From positions 1 to 26,491 of the forward strand of contig CAIRSC010000089.1 in assembly GCA_903881205.1 (NCBI GenBank): 26,491 nucleotides of DNA, given 5' to 3'. The notes below the pieces were generated by a model. The model searched no databases. It saw only the letters and a program-made list of their open reading frames with translations, and had not been told where the DNA came from. This document shows positions 1-19,796 of the stretch, one piece after another. The translations under genes and the position numbers were made by a program. Source of the DNA: an uncultured bacterium. Its GTDB lineage: Bacteria; Patescibacteriota; Minisyncoccia; Phycocordibacterales; UBA2100. The first letter of the stretch is position 1. Every line of letters begins with the position of its first letter.

Positions 1-1275
1 ATCCTTCCGTCGTACCCGGCATCGCGCGAGCTCTGCGCGATGGGAGGCATCGTTTCCAATAATTCCGGCGGCGAACTCACCCTCAAATACGGCAAGACCG
101 CCCACTATGTGAAAGAGTTCGAAGTCGTGCTCGCCGACGGCACAGTCACGACACTCAAACCGCTTTCGGCCGATGAGCTCGGCGACAAAGAGCTCGAGCA
201 GACATTCGAGGGAGAAATCTACCGCAAAATGCATCGTCTGCTGGCAGACAACGAAGCAGAGATCGAAGCGGCGCGGCCGAGTGTGACCAAGAATTCGGCC
301 GGTTATGCGCTCTGGAACGTAATGGATAGAAAAAAAGGCACGTTCGACCTCACTCAGCTCGTCTGCGGAGCCCAGGGCACGCTCGCCATGATCACGAAAG
401 CGAAGGTTGGTCTCGTAAAAACGAGTGAGCATCGCGCCATGCTCGTCGTATTCCTCTCCGACATCAGCATCCTCCCCGAGATCGTACATCGCGTGCTCAA
501 GTTCAAGCCCGAATCATTTGAATCCTACGACGACCAGACCTTCTCGCTTGCCGTCAAATTCATCCCGCAGATCATCGGAAATCTGGGCTTCACCAAAATG
601 CTTTCACTGGGTTTCGCATTCCTGCCGGAAATGTGGATGGCGCTTACCGGCGGTATCCCAAAAATGGTACTGATGGCGGAATTCGCCGAGAACTCCGCCG
701 ACGAAGCGCTCGAACAAGCTCGCCAGGCGCGCGCAGAACTCGAAGGGCTCGCGGTGCGCACCAAGATCGCGCGCAGTGAGGCGCAAACGGCAAAATACTG
801 GACCATCCGCCGCGAGAGCTTCCGTTTATTGCGGCAAAATATGAAGGGGCTCTATGCCGCTCCCTTTATCGACGACATTGTGGTACACCCCGACGACTAT
901 CCGCGATTTTTGCCGGAGCTTGATGCGCTCATCCGTGGACATCGTTTTATATATACCATCGCAGGGCACATCGGCGACGGCAACTTCCATATCATTCCGC
1001 TGGAGAATATGTCGGATCCCGAGGCGCGCGCCGAGATCACCGAACTGATGCCGAAGGTCTTTTCGTTGGTCGCAAAATACAAGGGTTCGATCACGGGAGA
1101 GCATAACGACGGCATCATCCGTACGCCGTATCTCGGAATCATGTTCAGCGAGAAGATGTTGAAACTCTTTGCTGAAGTGAAGAATATTTTCGATCCAAAA
1201 CACATCTTCAATCCGGGCAAGAAAACGGGCGGCACGATTGCCGACATCCGCCGCAGTATGATACGTCACTCCTGA
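1..1275 (+). CDS. FAD-binding oxidoreductase (GlcD/D-lactate dehydrogenase-like FAD-linked oxidase), 5' end outside the window
   Basis: Frame is open from base 1 (ILPSYPASRELCAMGG...). Motifs CGAQGTL, GHIGDGNFH, GSITGEHNDG and NPGK are typical of FAD-linked oxidases. Confidence 0.85.
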   Translation: MLPSYPASRELCAMGGIVSNNSGGELTLKYGKTAHYVKEFEVVLADGTVTTLKPLSADELGDKELEQTFEGEIYRKMHRLLADNEAEIEAARPSVTKNSAGYALWNVMDRKKGTFDLTQLVCGAQGTLAMITKAKVGLVKTSEHRAMLVVFLSDISILPEIVHRVLKFKPESFESYDDQTFSLAVKFIPQIIGNLGFTKMLSLGFAFLPEMWMALTGGIPKMVLMAEFAENSADEALEQARQARAELEGLAVRTKIARSEAQTAKYWTIRRESFRLLRQNMKGLYAAPFIDDIVVHPDDYPRFLPELDALIRGHRFIYTIAGHIGDGNFHIIPLENMSDPEARAEITELMPKVFSLVAKYKGSITGEHNDGIIRTPYLGIMFSEKMLKLFAEVKNIFDPKHIFNPGKKTGGTIADIRRSMIRHS

Positions 1276-1277
1276 GT

Positions 1278-2330
1278 ATGAAGATGCGACACATCGCCTA
1301 CATCACCACCGCACTCACCGCATTGTTGCTGCCCGCGATCGCAAGTGCTCATGAGGTATACGTGCTTCCGCCCGATGTCGTCGCGCGCGACCTCACCATG
1401 CCCGGGCTCCCGGTTCTCAACATTTTTCACGATCATACGGCATCATTCTTCTTTTGGATGTTCATCACGGTATGGGCCGTCATGACAGTACTCTCGATCT
1501 CTCTGTCAAAGCCGGTCGAACGATATCTCTCGCCCGTACTTCGGCCGCTTAAGAGATATGCGCCGCTTGCGGCACGACTCACACTTGGGACCGCGATCTT
1601 CGCATCGGGATATATGGCTGCCCTCTTCGGGCCGGAGCTGCCGCTTACTGCGTTCGTGTCGCCCGAATTCATTCCGATACTGAAACTTATATTAATGGTC
1701 CTCGGCGTCATGGTTGCGGTCGGACTGTTCACACGAGCGGCCGCTGTCGCACTGATGATCGTATTTGCCTCTTCGCTCCCCCATTATGGGACGTATATGC
1801 TTACCTATGCCAATTATCTCGGTGAAATGTTCGTGACCCTTGTCGTCGGCAATACATCGTTGGCGCTCGATCGATATGTTCACCATCGATATCCGCGCGT
1901 CTTTCATGCGATGTTTCAGTGGTGTGAGGATCGCGCATTTCTCATCTTGCGAGTAATGTTCGGAATATCCCTTATTTTCGCGTCCGTGTATGCGAAGCTT
2001 CTGCATGCACAGCTCGCGCTCGATACCGTGACGCGTTACGGGCTTGATCATGTCTTTCCGTTCCAGGCCCCCTTCATTGTGCTTGGCGCCTTCGCCATCG
2101 AGGTACTGCTCGGAATGTTTTTTGTATTTGGTATTGAAATACGATTCGCATCGCTGTTCCTCCTTTTCTGGCTCTCATTATCTCTCCTCTACTTCGGAGA
2201 AGCGGTCTGGCCGCATATTATTCTTGCCGGTGTTGCGATTGCCTTATTCATGCACGGATATGACCGGTACACGATTGAATTAGGTTATCTGCGCCGCAAA
2301 GGAAGACGTGCCAAAGAACCGATCTTCTGA
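1278..2330 (+). CDS. DoxX-family multi-pass membrane protein (two DoxX-like repeats)
   Basis: 350-aa hydrophobic ORF with two similar segments (LMVLGVMVAVGLFTRAAA / IEVLLGMFFVFGIEIRFAS). Confidence 0.65.
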   Translation: MKMRHIAYITTALTALLLPAIASAHEVYVLPPDVVARDLTMPGLPVLNIFHDHTASFFFWMFITVWAVMTVLSISLSKPVERYLSPVLRPLKRYAPLAARLTLGTAIFASGYMAALFGPELPLTAFVSPEFIPILKLILMVLGVMVAVGLFTRAAAVALMIVFASSLPHYGTYMLTYANYLGEMFVTLVVGNTSLALDRYVHHRYPRVFHAMFQWCEDRAFLILRVMFGISLIFASVYAKLLHAQLALDTVTRYGLDHVFPFQAPFIVLGAFAIEVLLGMFFVFGIEIRFASLFLLFWLSLSLLYFGEAVWPHIILAGVAIALFMHGYDRYTIELGYLRRKGRRAKEPIF

Positions 2331-5337: not shown

Positions 5338-5630
5338 CCCGCTCTAAGTTTTTTGGCTGGCATTATGCAGTACGTATATATTCTGCAAAGCTCGGCTGAC
5401 GACAACCTCTATGTCGGATGTACTTCTGATCTGCGCAAACGACTGCTTCTGCATAATGCGGGAAAGGTACAGGCAACCAAAAATCGCAGACCAATGAAAG
5501 TGATATACTACGAGGCCTTAATGAATAAGAAAGATGCGTTTGAGCGCGAAAAGTTCTTGAAGACCGGCTGGGGCAGGACGTACATAAGACGAGTTATGAA
5601 AAATCATTTTAGCCAAAAAATTTAGGCGGG
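5338..5630. mobile_element. GIY-YIG cassette bounded by ~20-bp imperfect inverted repeats
   Basis: cccgctctaagttttttggct (5338-5358) versus agccaaaaaatttaggcggg (5611-5630): 19 matches, 1 mismatch, 1 indel. The cassette is AT-richer than its flanks. Confidence 0.55.
5365..5625 (+). CDS. Small GIY-YIG nuclease family protein
   Basis: YVYIL...LYVGCTSDLRKRL..HN and AFEREKFLK.GWGR signature. Confidence 0.9.
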   Translation: MQYVYILQSSADDNLYVGCTSDLRKRLLLHNAGKVQATKNRRPMKVIYYEALMNKKDAFEREKFLKTGWGRTYIRRVMKNHFSQKI

Positions 5631-5633
5631 TAT

Positions 5634-6209
5634 ATGCGGGTCGTTACCTTCGACATAGAGACCGCGAACTGGCTTGCGGATACGGGTTCGAATGACCCGG
5701 CATCGCTCACGATCGCGATCGTCTGCGCGCACGATTCCGAGACAGACGAATATACGAGCTATCTTGAACACGAGCTGCCCAAGATGTGGAACATGCTGGA
5801 GCGCACTGATGTGCTTGTGGGCTACAATTCCGATCATTTTGATGTGCCGCTTTTGAACAAATATTATCCCGGCGATCTGACCAAAATAAAGAGTCTCGAC
5901 ATTATGAAAGAGGTCCAGGCGGTGCTGGGTCGCCGGCTGCGGCTCGACGCGATCGCGGAAGGCACGCTTGGCGTCAAGAAAAGCGGCAACGGCGGACAGT
6001 CGATTGTGTGGTGGCGCAACGGCGAGATCGATAAGGTGCGCCAGTATTGCCTCAAGGATGTAGAGATCACAAAGCGAATTTTTGATTATGCGCTCGAACA
6101 CGGTGGTGTGAGGTATCGGGAGCTCGGCAAGACCTACGACGTCAAGCTCGACGTATCAAAATGGCTCAATCCCGCCGGCGGCGCAATGACGTTTACGCTT
6201 GGGCTGTAA
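5634..6209 (+). CDS. RNase H-like 3'-5' exonuclease (DEDD/YprB-like)
   Basis: VTFDIET, VGYNSDHFD, SLD and YCLKDV motifs. Confidence 0.8.
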   Translation: MRVVTFDIETANWLADTGSNDPASLTIAIVCAHDSETDEYTSYLEHELPKMWNMLERTDVLVGYNSDHFDVPLLNKYYPGDLTKIKSLDIMKEVQAVLGRRLRLDAIAEGTLGVKKSGNGGQSIVWWRNGEIDKVRQYCLKDVEITKRIFDYALEHGGVRYRELGKTYDVKLDVSKWLNPAGGAMTFTLGL

Positions 6210-6294
6210 CGCTATTTTGAAAGCTCCCAGATAAGGTCGCTTTCAATGCACTCGAACCAAGGTTCTCGGCCCAAAAATCACTGCGTGTATGTTT

Positions 6295-6391
6295 GTGCAG
6301 AATACTTGCAATAGCTCGAACCAGCGCCGCCGGTGGGGGCGGCGGCGCAAAACCCCCGCAGGAAAACGGCGCGGCGAAGCCGCACCGCTGA
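6295..6391 (+). other. Distal att arm of element 1 encoding the alternative C-terminus of LSR1 (WC-RILAIARTSAAGGGGGAKPPQENGAAKPHR*)
   Basis: In frame with the LSR1 codons TGG TGC across the GTGC core. Stop TGA at 6389-6391. Confidence 0.75.
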
Positions 6392-6463
6392 CAATATCAA
6401 ATTTTTCTTTGGCGGAAAAGGTTCGAGTGCGCGTCTCGCGTACACAATTGTTCTTTACAACAT

Positions 6464-6494
6464 AGAAAGAACCCCTTGCCGAAGCAAGGGGTTC
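6464..6494 (-). terminator. Intrinsic terminator
   Basis: Perfect 11-bp stem gaaccccttgc/gcaaggggttc, a cUUCGg loop on the minus strand followed by TTTCT, downstream of ORF 6612-6836. Confidence 0.7.
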
Positions 6495-6611
6495 AGTAAC
6501 CAACACGAGGAAGGTTCTTATTCGCTCTCTATCCCGTAGGATAGTGAGCATTACCCTTTAAGAGATCCGAAGACCTCAACCTGTGTGTTGTGGTAAGTTC
6601 TTATCCGTCAT

Positions 6612-6836
6612 TTACCGTGACGTTTCCATGGAGACACTCTTGTATCCGAAGATCCGACCGATGAGGTCGGGAAGAATTGCATCGGCGAATGCCGTCAACT
6701 CTTCCTTCGAGATGCCAGTTTCCTTGGCGATATTTCCGAACCGACGCTTTGCTTCGTCGACGCTCGGAAGGCCGTTTTTGCTGGCGTATGTCTTCACCAG
6801 CTCAAGGGCGATTTCGCCTTGGCGTTTGCTATCCAT
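6612..6836 (-). CDS. Small hypothetical protein (cargo of element 1)
   Basis: MDSKRQGEIALELVK... ORF with GAGGAG 6 nt upstream of ATG 6836 and a terminator downstream. Confidence 0.6.
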   Translation of the reverse strand: MDSKRQGEIALELVKTYASKNGLPSVDEAKRRFGNIAKETGISKEELTAFADAILPDLIGRIFGYKSVSMETSR

Positions 6837-7000
6837 GTTTCTCTCCTCAAGGTACTTCATCCACGAAGCCCTCGTGGTAGGGGTCATCAGAGAATCTAAT
6901 GACTCTGTAATTTTACACCCTAAAGTATGAAGTTGTCAAGTGGTTGTGTGGACATCAAAAAATACCCATATTTACCAACGTATTTATTGCAATTGAGCGT

Positions 7001-7287
7001 ATGCCAAAAGAATTTTCTTTTTTCCAATTAACACATGGTTCGAGCCGATGGTTTTCCGGGCTCCTTGGCGGTTTTCGAGTGGTGCGGCTTTGCCGCGCCG
7101 TTTTCCTGCGGGGGTTTTGCGCCGCCGCCCCCACCGGCGGCGCTGGTTCGAGCTATTGCAAGTATTCTGCACCAGTTCGGAAATTGCAAGTCAGAGCTCG
7201 CCGCCGCGCAGGGCGCGGCGGCTCGCGCATAGTGCGGTTTCGGGTCAAAAACAAATTCGATTGGAAAAAAGAAAATTCTTTTGGCAT
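7001..7287. repeat. Composite repeat: 28-bp perfect inverted repeats enclosing an inverted, joined attP and recombinase-gene fragments
   Basis: 7001-7028 and 7260-7287 are perfect IRs. 7030-7056 = rc 8646-8672; 7056-7077 = rc 7451-7472; 7081-7172 = rc 6295-6386 (1 mismatch); 7169-7259 = rc 8682-8772. Confidence 0.95.
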
Positions 7288-7314
7288 TCCTTTAGCAATT
7301 AGAAACAACAAAAT

Positions 7315-8796
7315 ATGAAATACGTACTCTACGTACGAAAGAGCACTGAGGAAGATGACCGACAAGTATTGAGCATTGAAGCTCAGCTTGCTGAGCTGTC
7401 TTTGTATTCCGCCAAAGAAAAATTTGATATTGTTGCCTCCTTTGAGGAGGCGAAAACCGCCAAGGAGCCCGGGCGAACAAAGTTCGCAGAAATGCTGTCA
7501 TATATCGAGAGCGGGAAAGCAGAAGGCATCATATCGTGGCACCCTGACCGTCTCGCGCGCAATTCGGTGGACGGCGGCAAGATTATCCACCTGGTTGACC
7601 GTGGCTTGATTCGTTCCCTCAAATTCCCCACATTCTGGTTTGAACCCACGCCGCAGGGACTATTCATGCTCAATATTGCCTTTGGCCAATCAAAATATTT
7701 TTCTGACAATTTGCGAGAGAACGTGAAAAGAGGATTACGGCAAAAGATACGAAACGGGGTATGGCCCGGCTGGGCTCCGGCGGGGTACCTAAACAACCTC
7801 AAGACCCGAGGAATCGATGTAGACAACGCTAAGGCTCCAAAAGTACGGAAATTATTCGAATTGTACGCCACCGGAGCTTACACGCTCAACTCTCTCGCAA
7901 ATTGGTGCAAAGAAAACGGCTTGCGAGGCAACCGCGACAAGGAACTTCGCATATCCACCGTCCATCACGTCCTGAAAAATATTTTGTACATTGGCCTTAT
8001 GAAATACAACGGCGAGGTATTTGAGGGAACGCACGAGCCGATCCTGACAAAGAAACTTTTTGACCGAGTGCAGGAAATCCTCGCACAGCGGGGTAAAAAC
8101 CGCAGGGCCAAGCGGCGCACCTTTGCTTTTTCCGGCTTTCTCACGTGCGGCACCTGCACCTGCGCCATTACCGCCGAGCTACAGAAAGGACACACCTACT
8201 ACCGCTGTACCAAGAAAAAGCAAAAGTGCGACGAGAGATATATCCGCGAGGAAAAACTGACGGAGCAAATGCGGGGTTTCCTGCAAAAAGTTTCTTTGTC
8301 GAGCCAAGACACCGAGAAATGTTTGGCGGCGTTGAACAGCGAGGAAGCGCGAGCAAAAGAGGAATCACAGGGCGAAGTCCAACAACTGAAAACACAAACC
8401 GCAGACCTAGACACGAAGCTGGAAAAGTTGTTGGACGCTTACCTCACCGACGCGCTATCCACAGCGGAATACGCCGCCAAAAAAGAAAAGCTGGTGAACG
8501 AGAAAGTGCGCGTGCAAGAAAAAACCACCGACATCGAGACAAAAGGGGTGTCTTGGCTCGAACCGGCTCGTGAATTCGTTTTGTCTTTGAATCAAGCCAC
8601 GGTTCTGCTTTCCCGAAACGAAAAGAGCGAAATGACAGCGTTTCTGAAAACCATCGGCTCGAACCATGTGTTGCGTAATCGCGAATTTGTTTTTGACCCG
8701 AAACCGCACTATGCGCGAGCCGCCGCGCCCTGCGCGGCGGCGAGCTCTGACTTGCAATTTCCGAACTGGTGCCGAGAACCAGATTCGAACTGGTGA
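7315..8796 (+). CDS. Large serine recombinase LSR1 (resolvase, recombinase, zinc ribbon and coiled-coil domains)
   Basis: Catalytic motif YVRKS, DRLARN, zinc ribbon CGTC...YYRC...C. The last 10 codons overlap tRNA-Phe in antisense. Confidence 0.95.
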   Translation: MKYVLYVRKSTEEDDRQVLSIEAQLAELSLYSAKEKFDIVASFEEAKTAKEPGRTKFAEMLSYIESGKAEGIISWHPDRLARNSVDGGKIIHLVDRGLIRSLKFPTFWFEPTPQGLFMLNIAFGQSKYFSDNLRENVKRGLRQKIRNGVWPGWAPAGYLNNLKTRGIDVDNAKAPKVRKLFELYATGAYTLNSLANWCKENGLRGNRDKELRISTVHHVLKNILYIGLMKYNGEVFEGTHEPILTKKLFDRVQEILAQRGKNRRAKRRTFAFSGFLTCGTCTCAITAELQKGHTYYRCTKKKQKCDERYIREEKLTEQMRGFLQKVSLSSQDTEKCLAALNSEEARAKEESQGEVQQLKTQTADLDTKLEKLLDAYLTDALSTAEYAAKKEKLVNEKVRVQEKTTDIETKGVSWLEPAREFVLSLNQATVLLSRNEKSEMTAFLKTIGSNHVLRNREFVFDPKPHYARAAAPCAAASSDLQFPNWCREPDSNW

Positions 8797-8842
8797 CCCT
8801 TCCCTCTTCAGGGGAATGCTCTACCAACTGAGCTATCTCGGC
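8767..8842 (-). tRNA. tRNA-Phe(GAA) with encoded CCA
   Basis: GCCGAGA acceptor stem, TTCCC-CTGAAGA-GGGAA anticodon arm, TTCGAAT T-loop, ends GGCACCA. Confidence 0.97.
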
Positions 8843-8903
8843 AAATTCCGTCCGTTGGCTGGACGCCCATTAATATACCCGTCTTTGGCCCTTTTCTCAA
8901 TGA

Positions 8904-9218
8904 TTACTGTGCTGTTGTCGTTCCCGTCCCCATGCCGGGAATCTTGTTCTTGAATTGATTCCACGTATTTTCGAGGTCACTAAACTTCGTCTGCGCCTGC
9001 ACACTGGTCCCCTGTATCTGTTGGACCTCATCGAGCATGCGATTTACGACCGGCGCAAGATACGAAAGATAGAACCAGATCGGTGCCGCGAGCAGTGCCG
9101 CATATACGATGGTACGGATAATACCGCCCCAAAAAGCATTGCGCTTCATTGTGCGAAGCATCTTATTGTTCTCGAGCGTAAGGCGGTACGTCTCTCGAAT
9201 AAGATCATTTTCGGGCAT
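8904..9218 (-). CDS. Hypothetical single-pass membrane protein between the two tRNAs
   Basis: 104-aa ORF with one TM helix and coiled-coil character. TGgTACGAT lies 6 nt upstream of the ATG. Confidence 0.7.
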   Translation of the reverse strand: MPENDLIRETYRLTLENNKMLRTMKRNAFWGGIIRTIVYAALLAAPIWFYLSYLAPVVNRMLDEVQQIQGTSVQAQTKFSDLENTWNQFKNKIPGMGTGTTTAQ

Positions 9219-9282
9219 GGAGATATCGTACCATTTAAAACCAACACGCCCCGGAGGGCGTGTGGTAAAGTTGCCTCGTTAC

Positions 9283-9354
9283 CCCCTTGTAGCTCAATGG
9301 ATAGAGCAGTCCCGTCCTAAGGGAAAGATGTAGGTTCGATTCCTGCTAAGGGGA
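9283..9354 (+). tRNA. tRNA-Arg(CCT), no encoded CCA
   Basis: CCCCTTG/TAAGGGG acceptor, GCTC/GAGC D stem, loop GTCCTAA, GTAGG-TTCGATT-CCTGC T arm. Confidence 0.9.
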
Positions 9355-10867
9355 CATGACAATTCTGACCACCACCTGACGCCGATGTCAGTGTGAAGAT
9401 TGGCGCTAATTCGACGGTTTTGAATTCCGGATACTGGAACCCGACATTTTGGGGGAAGAAGAGGCTTATCAAAACCCTAAGCTCTCCAGGCTCCAGCGTT
9501 GCCCAACAATGCGGGAATTCTTTTACGAGGCTAATGCCGAACTTTACTGCTGACTCTACTGACTCCTCGGGGCTGATGAGTGCGCTCCTCTGAATTTCCA
9601 GATTCCGCTGCTCTGCTTGCTGCTTCTCACTTTTGCGAGCGTAGTCCTCGTTGGTAATCTTTCTCTCCAGCATCAGCTGCAATAAGGAATCTCTCTCCTC
9701 TTGCAGCTTTTCCATTCTCCTCTCAACTTTCTCTGCAAGACTCAAGCTCTCTTTGTTCTCTTTCTCATGGGCGATGATTATTGCTTCTCCTACTGCGTCC
9801 AACACGTTGGAATCCGGAGTAATGGATTCAAGGAATCTTGTGAAGTCATCTTCCATGTCCGTTTTAGCGATTGCTCTTCTGAGAGGACAACCGAAATTCA
9901 TGCAGCTGTAGTAACCGTACATTTTGCTTCTGCCCTTAGTACGACCTCCCGTCAGGTTTCCTCCGCAGCCACCGCACTTCAGCCCCCTGAGAGGAAAGTC
10001 AGGATTATTCCTACTGCGAGGCTGCTTACGAGATTTGCTGCCCTCCTTGAGAAGCTGCACCTTGAAATACAATTCCTTAGAAATGATGGGCTCATGTCTG
10101 CCTTGTACCGAGATGTTGAATTTTGGTATTTCGATCCAGCCGTAGTGGATTGGGTTCCGTAGGATGTTATATACAAGCTGCTTTCCTACTTTGCGGCCGA
10201 ATCTACTGCGGATATCTCCCATCGCATTAATCTTTTTAGCGATTTCCAGATAGGTCGTTGTGCCTCTTGCGAACTCCTCAAAGCAGAACTTAACGATGGA
10301 CGCTTTTTGAGGATGTGGGGTTATGGTCTTTTTACCGAGTTCATCCTTGCTGTTTTTATAGCCCCAAGGCGCAAGAACAGGCCAATATCCATCGAGGGCT
10401 TTTGCTTTCATGCCAGCGACAGCTCTCTCACCTCGGACATCATTGTCGAACTGAGCGATGACAGCCAGCATTCCCTCCGAGAGTCTTCCGTGAGAAGTGT
10501 TCTCAATCAATTCCGTGGCAGATCTTAGTTCGACCTTACACTCTCGGAGCACTAACTTTATTGCGAAGTGGTCTACTTGATTGCGAGCCAACCTATCGAC
10601 CTTGTAGACGATCAGGTACCCAATTCTCCCTACGTTTTTTATGCAGTGCTTCTGGAGGTTTTGTAGCTCCGTTCTGTCTGCATTCTTCGCTGACTCTCCT
10701 TCTTCACGAAACACCTGCAGAACCTCCCAGCCATTTTTATCCGCGTAGGCTCTGCAATCCTTTTCCTGATTCATGAGGCTGTATCCCCGCACTTGGTCTT
10801 CGGACGAGACACGCACATAGATGATGCAGGTCTTTGGACGCTCAACGCTCTTAATTTGTTTTTTCAT
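9317..10867 (-). CDS. Large serine recombinase LSR2
   Basis: YVRVSS, VDRLARN, zinc ribbon CGGC...YYSC...C and a coiled coil. The C-terminus VPLAGIEPTSFP* is read from the antisense strand of tRNA-Arg. Confidence 0.95.
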   Translation of the reverse strand: MKKQIKSVERPKTCIIYVRVSSEDQVRGYSLMNQEKDCRAYADKNGWEVLQVFREEGESAKNADRTELQNLQKHCIKNVGRIGYLIVYKVDRLARNQVDHFAIKLVLRECKVELRSATELIENTSHGRLSEGMLAVIAQFDNDVRGERAVAGMKAKALDGYWPVLAPWGYKNSKDELGKKTITPHPQKASIVKFCFEEFARGTTTYLEIAKKINAMGDIRSRFGRKVGKQLVYNILRNPIHYGWIEIPKFNISVQGRHEPIISKELYFKVQLLKEGSKSRKQPRSRNNPDFPLRGLKCGGCGGNLTGGRTKGRSKMYGYYSCMNFGCPLRRAIAKTDMEDDFTRFLESITPDSNVLDAVGEAIIIAHEKENKESLSLAEKVERRMEKLQEERDSLLQLMLERKITNEDYARKSEKQQAEQRNLEIQRSALISPEESVESAVKFGISLVKEFPHCWATLEPGELRVLISLFFPQNVGFQYPEFKTVELAPIFTLTSASGGGQNCHVPLAGIEPTSFP

Positions 10868-19577: not shown

Positions 19578-19595
19578 GTGCGGGTACGGGGAATC
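19578..19595 (-). repeat. 18-bp direct repeat of the tRNA-Gly(CCC) 3' end (att-like scar)
   Basis: gtgcgggtacggggaatc is identical at 19578-19595 and 19725-19742. Confidence 0.9.
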
Positions 19596-19707: not shown

Positions 19708-19725
19708 TATTCGCTTCGCTCTTTG

Positions 19726-19796
19726 TGCGGGTACGGGGAATCGAACCCCGCTCTCAACCTTGGGAAGGTCGCATTCTACCACTAAACCATACCCGC
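19726..19796 (-). tRNA. tRNA-Gly(CCC), no encoded CCA
   Basis: GCGGGTA/TACCCGC acceptor, CGACC-TTCCCAA-GGTTG anticodon arm, CGGGG-TTCGATT-CCCCG T arm. Confidence 0.95.

Follow-up and report, generated by a model that had tools for sequence, protein, structure and literature searches.

The 26,491-nucleotide stretch of DNA analysed here (contig CAIRSC010000089.1 of an uncultured Patescibacteriota bacterium, hereafter the window) carries an integrative element of 2,474 bp that occupies a tRNA-Phe gene at its 3′ end; the ends of the element are at 6295/6299 and 8768/8772. The element encodes a large serine recombinase (LSR), LSR1, and the attachment site of the element (attP) lies across the end of the open reading frame (ORF) of this enzyme, while a second, inverted copy of attP lies upstream of the same gene. 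Based on the window, on contigs of the unoccupied site and on comparisons with relatives, we consider it probable, with room for other readings, that this is an LSR-driven tRNA element in which the inverted attP allows two orientations of the recombinase gene, and that orientation and promoter context regulate the enzyme more than its exchanged C-terminal tail does. The crossover points, the target gene, the arms of attP and the recombinase gene are as follows.

6295–6298, forward strand: left crossover core GTGC (attL); the element start is placed at 6295–6299 by the sequence and by the empty-site contigs.
8769–8772, forward strand: right crossover core GTGC (attR), made up of the last base of a Trp codon and a Cys codon, antisense to the tRNA GCAC.
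8767–8842, reverse strand: tRNA-Phe(GAA), the target gene (ARAGORN), with its terminal GCACCA within the core and the A1 arm and its T-loop motif 12 nt from the core.
6299–6389, forward strand: B1, the far arm of attP, which encodes the 30-aa tail of the circle form and in which TCGAAC starts 17 nt from the core.
8682–8768, forward strand: A1, the arm of attP inside the 3′ end of LSR1.
7315–8796, forward strand: LSR1, the large serine recombinase, 493 aa in the integrated form, with Resolvase, Recombinase and Zn_ribbon_recom domains.

The boundaries of the element were placed by contigs in which it is missing. Logan contigs of four runs from one lake-water study were mapped onto positions 5600–9400, and the sole joint found in them passed from 6294 to 8769, so that 2,474 nt are missing and 4 nt fit on either side. 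Run X3 contributed a contig of 7,721 nt (depth 14.4) that covered 5634–6294 with 0 mismatches and 8769–9355 with 1 mismatch, and depth in this run was zero over most of the element. The window probably comes from run X1, in which the element had a depth of ~21–24 and an empty-site contig was present at a depth of 8.2. This empty allele beside the occupied element indicated that the element is polymorphic in the population. A first-pass annotation, made from the sequence of the window, had predicted the empty site, and the exact join was found in contigs of both X3 and X1; both ends lie precisely where that annotation had put them, and the GTGC core that it saw recurring is present at 6295–6298 and at 8769–8772. 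An insertion or an excision happened at exactly these points, and the empty contigs leave the direction of the event undecided. Precise occupied and empty alleles that share a short identical core are what an attP × attB exchange would be expected to leave. The terminal GCACCA of the tRNA gene falls within the core and the A1 arm, which means that its CA outside the core belongs to the element. ARAGORN called this tRNA-Phe as intact with its last bases supplied by arm A, and the displaced end of the gene is therefore restored by the element.

As judged from its sequence and a structural model of a homologue, LSR1 has the catalytic serine, the zinc ribbon and the predicted coiled-coil insertion of a serine integrase. 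PF00239 matched residues 4–150 (E 1.1e-20), PF07508 and PF13408 were also found, and in the family alignment Ser10 and Arg8 were nearly invariant and four Cys were invariant. LSR1 matched the A118 and SPbeta integrases, including the C-terminal domain of the A118 integrase (4KIS, E 7.6e-9), and long coiled-coil helices were predicted at 331–378 and 384–411 in the AlphaFold model of the homologue P0024 described below.

The conserved part of LSR1 stops at Trp485-Cys486 (8767–8772), and its final seven codons and stop are antisense tRNA-Phe. The integrated protein ends ...FPNWC-REPDSNW, the last 30 nt of its gene being antisense to the tRNA-Phe 3′ end. When 8772 is joined to 6299 the frame is kept for 30 codons, RILAIART...AAKPHR, to a stop at 6390–6392, and the joined frame gives RILAIARTSAAGGGGGAKPPQENGAAKPHR before the stop, for a protein of 486 + 30 = 516 aa. 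Both the antisense tRNA-Phe terminus and the joined ORF of 516 rather than 493 aa had been described in the first-pass annotation and agree with the sequence. Its further claim, that the crossover lies inside the recombinase ORF and that insertion swaps the C-terminal tail, is borne out at the level of the ORF by the sequence together with the empty site.

Relatives of LSR1 have tails of the same kind. We took 80 family loci from GTDB species genomes, and the tail counts refer to the 28 loci with both element ends on the contig. Tails of the RILAIART type, which the annotation had looked to in homologues, were in frame in the B arm of 24 of the 28 loci and were present in predicted proteins such as P0024, P0126 and P0134. 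The length of the B arm, from the core to a fixed anchor, was divisible by 3 in 24/28 loci, in which it took nine values from 63 to 123 nt, and the frame from the Trp-Cys (WC) codons was open to a TGA at the end of the B arm, again in 24 of 28. The tails are ~30 aa long with the consensus (S/R)IL(E/K)(L/I)(V/A)RT...AA(E/K)PHR and typically end in AAEPHR. Such conserved, in-frame tails across B arms of different lengths argue for translation of the A.B junction. This is subject to the caveats that the antisense frame across the B arm is open as well (27/28 loci), that the conserved ending overlaps a small GC hairpin, and that recognition sequence next to the core codes for the first residues. 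The tails of integrated copies consist of 1 to >60 unrelated residues. An AlphaFold model of P0024, a natural long-tail form, was made from a 28-sequence alignment (mean predicted local distance difference test score, pLDDT, 69.9). The last strands of its fold are at 451–462 and the fold ends near residue 462; pLDDT was <50 for residues 465–488, which arm A encodes through WC, and for most of the tail, with a weak helix at 489–499 (pLDDT ~50). These low scores at the site suggest that the crossover is placed where there is little structural constraint, and going by this model the tail would be a largely dispensable, disordered extension.

The anatomy of the attachment sites points to the tRNA as the feature that is recognised. 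In this family attP has two arms: A is formed by the final ~100 nt of the conserved ORF and B comes from the opposite end of the element. The TGG-TGC of the Trp-Cys codons is the antisense of the tRNA GCACCA. The left flank and arm A shared 3–7 nt at the crossover in 27 loci, with TGC as the minimum, which places strand exchange within those three bases. With only 3–7 nt shared there is no long direct repeat of a tRNA 3′ segment, unlike in tyrosine-integrase islands. The tRNA arm has a TCGAA-type motif that begins 12 nt from the core (22/27 loci), and (T/C/G)CGAAC lies at 17 nt from the core in arm B (20/27 by scan, the remaining 7 having a GCGAAC variant recognised by eye). Family-wide, the T-loop-like motif is thus 5 bp farther from the core on the element side than on the tRNA side. 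A 5-bp offset between attB and attP half-sites was reportedly described for the zinc-ribbon motif of serine integrases by Rutherford et al. in 2013. The motif and its offset together indicate that the family reads the universal tRNA T-arm, which makes many tRNAs usable. The distance between the opposite-strand tRNA and the WC codons is fixed, the tRNA starting exactly 5 nt ahead of their end in 45 loci, and 17 isoacceptors were used, including several for Leu and Arg as well as Lys, Tyr, Gly, Met, Val, Phe and Ala. A palindromic central dinucleotide GC was considered as the cause of the freedom of orientation described below; the shared core fits TG or GC alike.

Two inverted repeats, 6295–6389 against 7078–7172 (95 nt, 98%) and 7166–7259 against 8682–8775 (94 nt, 99%), make 7078–7259 the reverse complement of the joined element ends. 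The first-pass annotation had already noticed this inverted junction, which we place at 7078–7259. Further perfect short inverted repeats, absent from that account, tile 7001–7287 and 6391–6417, and several of them are copies of pieces of the LSR1 coding sequence (CDS). The parts of this region and their partners are as follows.

7078–7259, reverse strand: second intact attP, inverted, consisting of B2′ (7078–7168), the core GCAC (7169–7172) and A2′ (7173–7259).
6391–6417, forward strand: m3′, the perfect reverse complement of M3 (7407–7433); the TGA of the circle-form ORF is completed by its first base.
7001–7028, forward strand: left half of IR3, which with 7260–7287 forms a 28-bp perfect inverted repeat.
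7260–7287, forward strand: right half of IR3, upstream of the LSR1 start.
7030–7056, forward strand: m2′, the reverse complement of CDS 8646–8672.
7056–7077, forward strand: m1′, the reverse complement of CDS 7451–7472.
7407–7433 and 7451–7472, forward strand: the CDS pieces M3 and M1, with inverted copies elsewhere in the element.
8646–8672, forward strand: the CDS piece M2, with an inverted copy elsewhere in the element.

This layout is common to the family. From the left, the order is flank, B1, m3′ (the reverse complement of CDS +91..119), one cargo gene and the left half of IR3; then m2′ (of CDS ~+1334..1360), m1′ (of CDS +137..157), B2′.A2′ and the right half of IR3; and finally the recombinase gene, whose terminal A1 adjoins the tRNA, with constant offsets from the start codon. 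In 28 loci m3′ adjoins B1 at an equal position. IR3 in relatives directly precedes the cargo start codon and has its second copy just upstream of the recombinase gene, and it would most simply be a shared piece of 5′ untranslated region with a ribosome-binding site. The pieces between the IR3 halves (hereafter the cassette) were surveyed in 40 loci with at least 350 nt upstream of the gene, of which 28 had the full set, nine only the A′ copy (truncated in five) and three none. In the 28 loci the inverted attP sits 44–150 nt upstream of the start codon. Within a locus the copies are 97–100% identical to their partners, and the recombinases of different loci differ by 25–40% in amino acids. Nucleotide conservation between loci was 94% for M3, 87.5% for M2 and 80% for M1, against 74–77% for control CDS stretches. 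This pattern suggests a role of these pieces at the DNA or RNA level; M2 contains the T-loop-like GCTCGAACC. For the origin of M1–M3 we weighed a defective mini-circle, template switching in series, RNA pairing and a function as accessory binding sites, and the order of the pieces is incompatible with one nested fold. At the right end of the L104 contig (L104:4079–4377), A-B-M1-M2 is present in tandem for more than one turn (B′.A′-m2′-m1′-B′), like a ~245-bp circle copied head to tail. A forward-strand ORF that spans the cassette (6944–7318, its TGA overlapping the LSR1 ATG) was rejected as a conserved gene because its frames differ between lineages, with at least 100 codons open in ~22/37 loci and short frames (31–44 codons) in 4. 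The inverted junction copy is conserved architecture and probably the more important regulatory device, compared with the tail.

The inverted attP places the recombinase gene between inverted A arms and the cargo between inverted B arms, as repeats of ~95 nt. Two states were found in the family. State 1 is common and is that of the window: the recombinase gene and the tRNA are convergent, and the tail of the protein derives from the tRNA. In state 2 the gene lies downstream of the tRNA, co-directional with it, and the ORF extends into B2 and on into the copies of M1 and M2. A flip of the recombinase segment predicts the order tRNA, A2′, IR3, recombinase, A1.B2, M1, M2, IR3, cargo, M3, B1′, flank, with all pieces direct, and this arrangement was found in L011, L105, L113, L116 and L118. 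A2′ of L116 borders directly on a tRNA-type T-arm and acceptor end; a tRNA-Lys with 14-nt inverted repeats lies ~50 nt upstream of that end (L116:1660–1850). L104 is a hybrid with cargo modules on either side of the recombinase. The window in state 2 would carry a 46-residue tail, and the long-tail ORFs in the databases stem from state 2 or from tandem arrays, none of them from a recognisable free circle. The recombinase modules of L011 and L044 are 98.6% identical in nucleotides and those of L104 and L031 99%, with different states, sites and cargo, and near-identical modules in such different contexts indicate that modules reassort quickly. The first of these pairs was tried as a demonstration of flipping in situ and was rejected since the two occupy different sites. 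Arm A adjoins a foreign B-type arm in L093, L016 and L039, and in L112 a recombinase from another family, with the ending ...RLC, is followed by an element of the present family. These tandem arrays indicate that occupied sites, in which A is joined to a tRNA, stay targets and that the tRNA half-site is decisive.

Based on these observations we propose that the element would move by an ordinary serine-integrase reaction, with an attP that spans the end of the ORF of the enzyme and a recombinase that would recognise the tRNA T-arm. Integration would rebuild the end of the tRNA and replace the ~30-aa tail encoded by arm B with antisense tRNA residues. The two states would interconvert either through the recombinase, with the internal attP and attR as its sites, or through homologous recombination. 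Orientation and promoter context would then regulate the enzyme more than the tail, a preference that we base on the predicted disorder of the tail region, on the arbitrary tails of integrated copies and on the coupling of the gene to the tRNA promoter in state 2. Among the family elements examined there was no conserved second gene and hence no conserved directionality factor; such a factor may be supplied in trans.

Several observations weigh against this proposal. The empty allele may simply be the ancestral form. A pattern scan of metagenome contigs for the free circle junction LSR-A.B1-m3′ of one common subfamily, which would mark a circle or a same-family tandem, gave 0 matches. The circle-junction probe suggested in the first-pass annotation would fail in its present form: the integrated element already holds this ~180-nt sequence as its internal inverted copy, so that circle and cassette are inseparable by k-mer or contig data. 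The same insertion was seen in both states in no case, L011 and L044 included, and switching in situ is for this reason something that we infer. State 2 is rare (0 of the 80 fetched genome loci), and short-read assemblies may misorient segments between perfect repeats of ~100 nt. A scan of the window for sigma-70-like promoters gave one each for the tRNA and the cargo gene and none before LSR1; this result speaks for the proposal, but promoters of the candidate phyla radiation (CPR) may not fit the scan. The copies of M1, M2 and M3, ~100% identical to the CDS within each locus, are not explained by the proposal. In L012, the closest relative (86% amino-acid identity), the IR3 halves are adjacent and the cassette is missing, which indicates that the cassette is not indispensable.

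The interpretation of the first-pass annotation, that the tail swap is a switch of directionality or activity, is in our view unlikely. Spelled out, the circle form would integrate and the integrated form would be inactive or prone to excision. In favour of such a switch, the tail encoded by B is in frame with a conserved ending in 24/28 loci, no separate directionality factor is conserved in elements of 2.3–3.5 kb, the same kind of swap changes the specificity of the Mx8 tyrosine integrase (PMC6070905), and integration of mycobacteriophages with attP in the repressor gene removes a degradation tag (PMC9934374). However, residues 465–488 and most of the tail are predicted to be disordered, save for the weak helix at 489–499, the length and sequence of integrated tails are arbitrary, and the conservation could be a by-product of constraints on the DNA site or the hairpin, the antisense frame being open in 27/28. 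Predicted disorder of the tail would equally suit a neutral overlap that arose by compaction, in which the cassette is a hitchhiking deletion derivative in the form of a mini-circle, or an autoregulatory site, and there is no orientation switch. The cassette amounts to a circle M2-A-B-M1 opened once and placed in the middle of the IR3 palindrome, this palindrome is intact without the cassette in L012, the right end of L104 has more than one turn of the unit in tandem, and the cassette is truncated in five loci and missing in three. We nevertheless give this account a low probability, about equal to that of the tail switch, because the cassette has stayed 97–100% identical to the functional arms across 28 loci whose recombinases are 25–40% different, because conservation is higher in the copied CDS pieces than in the codons around them, and because state 2 uses the B arm of the cassette as the continuation of the ORF.

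That the inverted junction and the mosaic of pieces are a chimera of assembly or amplification, with the 4-bp core there by chance, is very improbable. Perfect inverted pieces of 22–28 nt do resemble template-switch chimeras, and the Logan unitig 7143–7198 over the internal B′.A′ junction had a depth of 10.6, about half that of its neighbours; the repeat unitigs 6295–6375 and 7169–7259 had depths of 26.4 and 20.4, where two copies predict ~45 (unique parts 21–24). Against this, the architecture and the CDS offsets are equal in 28 loci, and an independent empty-site contig agrees with both boundaries. These loci came from many assemblies with contig names that point to different assemblers, which excludes an artefact. 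A bolder idea, which we regard as doubtful, is a modular self-inverting system in which recombination of the spare attP with the occupied tRNA site would flip the recombinase gene with no need of a directionality factor, and one-gene cargo modules bracketed by inverted B arms would be exchanged in an integron-like cassette economy. A flip in such a system would join the ORF to the spare B arm, giving the long tail, and put the gene behind the tRNA promoter (ON), and in the opposite orientation, convergent with the tRNA, it would be OFF.

The family to which LSR1 belongs is large. A protein search gave at least 7,338 matches among 8,000 candidates scored, and the best 120 matches were 68–86% identical, with the named ones from Patescibacteria. 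The end of the family, ...L-x-F-P-x-W-C, is conserved and followed by complete divergence, and most tails are xxDSNxH or xxESNxH, which is translated antisense tRNA T-arm. Elements of the family are 2.3–3.5 kb in size. The 0.8-Mb genome of the window (G000) has five LSR genes, three of them on contigs C39, C83 and C101. A full-text literature search found no published description of this LSR family, and a survey of 6,207 LSRs by Durrant et al. leaves tRNA unmentioned. None of the known systems with which we compared the element unites an LSR whose own gene contains attP, targeting of the tRNA T-arm and a conserved second attP in inverted orientation.

The serine integrases of A118/LI, SPbeta, phiC31 and Bxb1 have the same domains, coiled-coil insertion and short core, and the same zinc-ribbon-type motif 5 bp farther out on the element side, and the same unidirectional logic is to be expected. 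The present elements differ from them in that attP straddles the end of the ORF of the enzyme, the T-arm and acceptor of many tRNAs are targeted and occupied sites stay targets, and in that they are 2.3–3.5 kb long with one cargo gene, no conserved directionality factor and a built-in inverted attP. Among tyrosine recombinases, SSV1 is a precedent for attP inside the integrase gene. In Mx8, attP is likewise inside int, and integration gives a new 3′ end and an altered specificity (PMC6070905). The location of attP in the integrase ORF and the new 3′ end on integration are thus shared with systems of the Mx8 IntP/IntX and SSV1 type, but those are tyrosine recombinases in phage or virus genomes with no inverted spare attP, whereas here a serine enzyme acts in an element of 2.5 kb. 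In the integration-dependent immunity of mycobacteriophages, attP lies inside the repressor gene and an ssrA-like degradation tag is cut off (PMC9934374). The 3′ end of an ORF is lost on integration in both cases, of a repressor there and of a recombinase here, and no ssrA-like degradation tag is evident in the window element.

As with the invertases Hin, Gin and Min and shufflon-like swapping, a segment between inverted sites occurs in two orientations, and the orientation decides which C-terminal end and which promoter are connected. The inverted arms are 91–95 nt long, and both orientations occur among related elements, from different insertions. Unlike in those systems, the invertible gene would be that of the LSR, with att arms of ~95 nt as its sites, in-situ switching would be an extrapolation from such comparisons, and no Fis-type enhancer was identified in the window element. 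Tn4451 has a promoter at its circle joint. Tn4451 and Tn5397, moved by TnpX and TndX, are likewise small elements, moved by an LSR through a circular form, in which the state of the element alters recombinase expression; in those the alteration concerns the promoter, not the ORF, and there is neither tRNA targeting nor an inverted second site.

The cargo of the window element is a single unit.

6469–6939, reverse strand: cargo unit with a promoter-like site (6939–6910), an ORF of 91 aa (6612–6887) and a terminator-like hairpin (6494–6469).

The ORF at 6612–6887 matched no Pfam family. It was considered as a directionality factor or repressor and rejected on that account and because relatives carry unrelated genes at this place. 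Throughout the family the cargo is single, variable and unrelated between loci, and includes a radical SAM protein, an SRPBCC protein, an NAD(P)HX dehydratase, an FAD oxidoreductase, HNH proteins, secreted proteins and proteins of unknown type.

Other differences lie close to the element. A second recombinase gene, LSR2 (9317–10867, reverse strand, 516 aa), ends antisense inside tRNA-Arg(CCT) (9283–9355), in this case with no inverted copy of attP. Position 9355 is also exactly where the empty-site contig of X3 parts from the window, and the LSR2 island is therefore also absent or different in that strain. On the left the same contig departs at 5634, which makes the stretch 5338–5634, with a small cassette after hisS, the third place within 4 kb at which the strains differ. 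About 40 nt left of the element, at 6229–6256, the T-arm and acceptor end of tRNA-Phe recur as a degenerate copy (..tcgaacc..ggttctcggc..), in forward orientation and opposite to the live tRNA-Phe, which may be the remnant of an earlier event. Farther away, an 18-nt exact direct repeat of the 3′ end of tRNA-Gly(CCC) (19578–19595 and 19725–19742, 147 nt apart) looks like the scar of a small insertion.

LSRs are leading tools for the insertion of large DNA, and the control of their directionality and their choice of target are active questions. The family described here offers a natural LSR with attP in its gene and thousands of relatives, in which the integrated and unintegrated states encode different proteins. 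Its target, the tRNA T-arm, is near-universal, and the textbook 5-bp offset between attP and attB can be read from sequence. The conserved double-attP layout gives two orientations of the enzyme gene without a dedicated directionality factor. In the tiny genomes of Patescibacteria, bacteria that are hard to culture, the family accounts for part of the strain-level variation beside tRNA genes, with one accessory gene per element.

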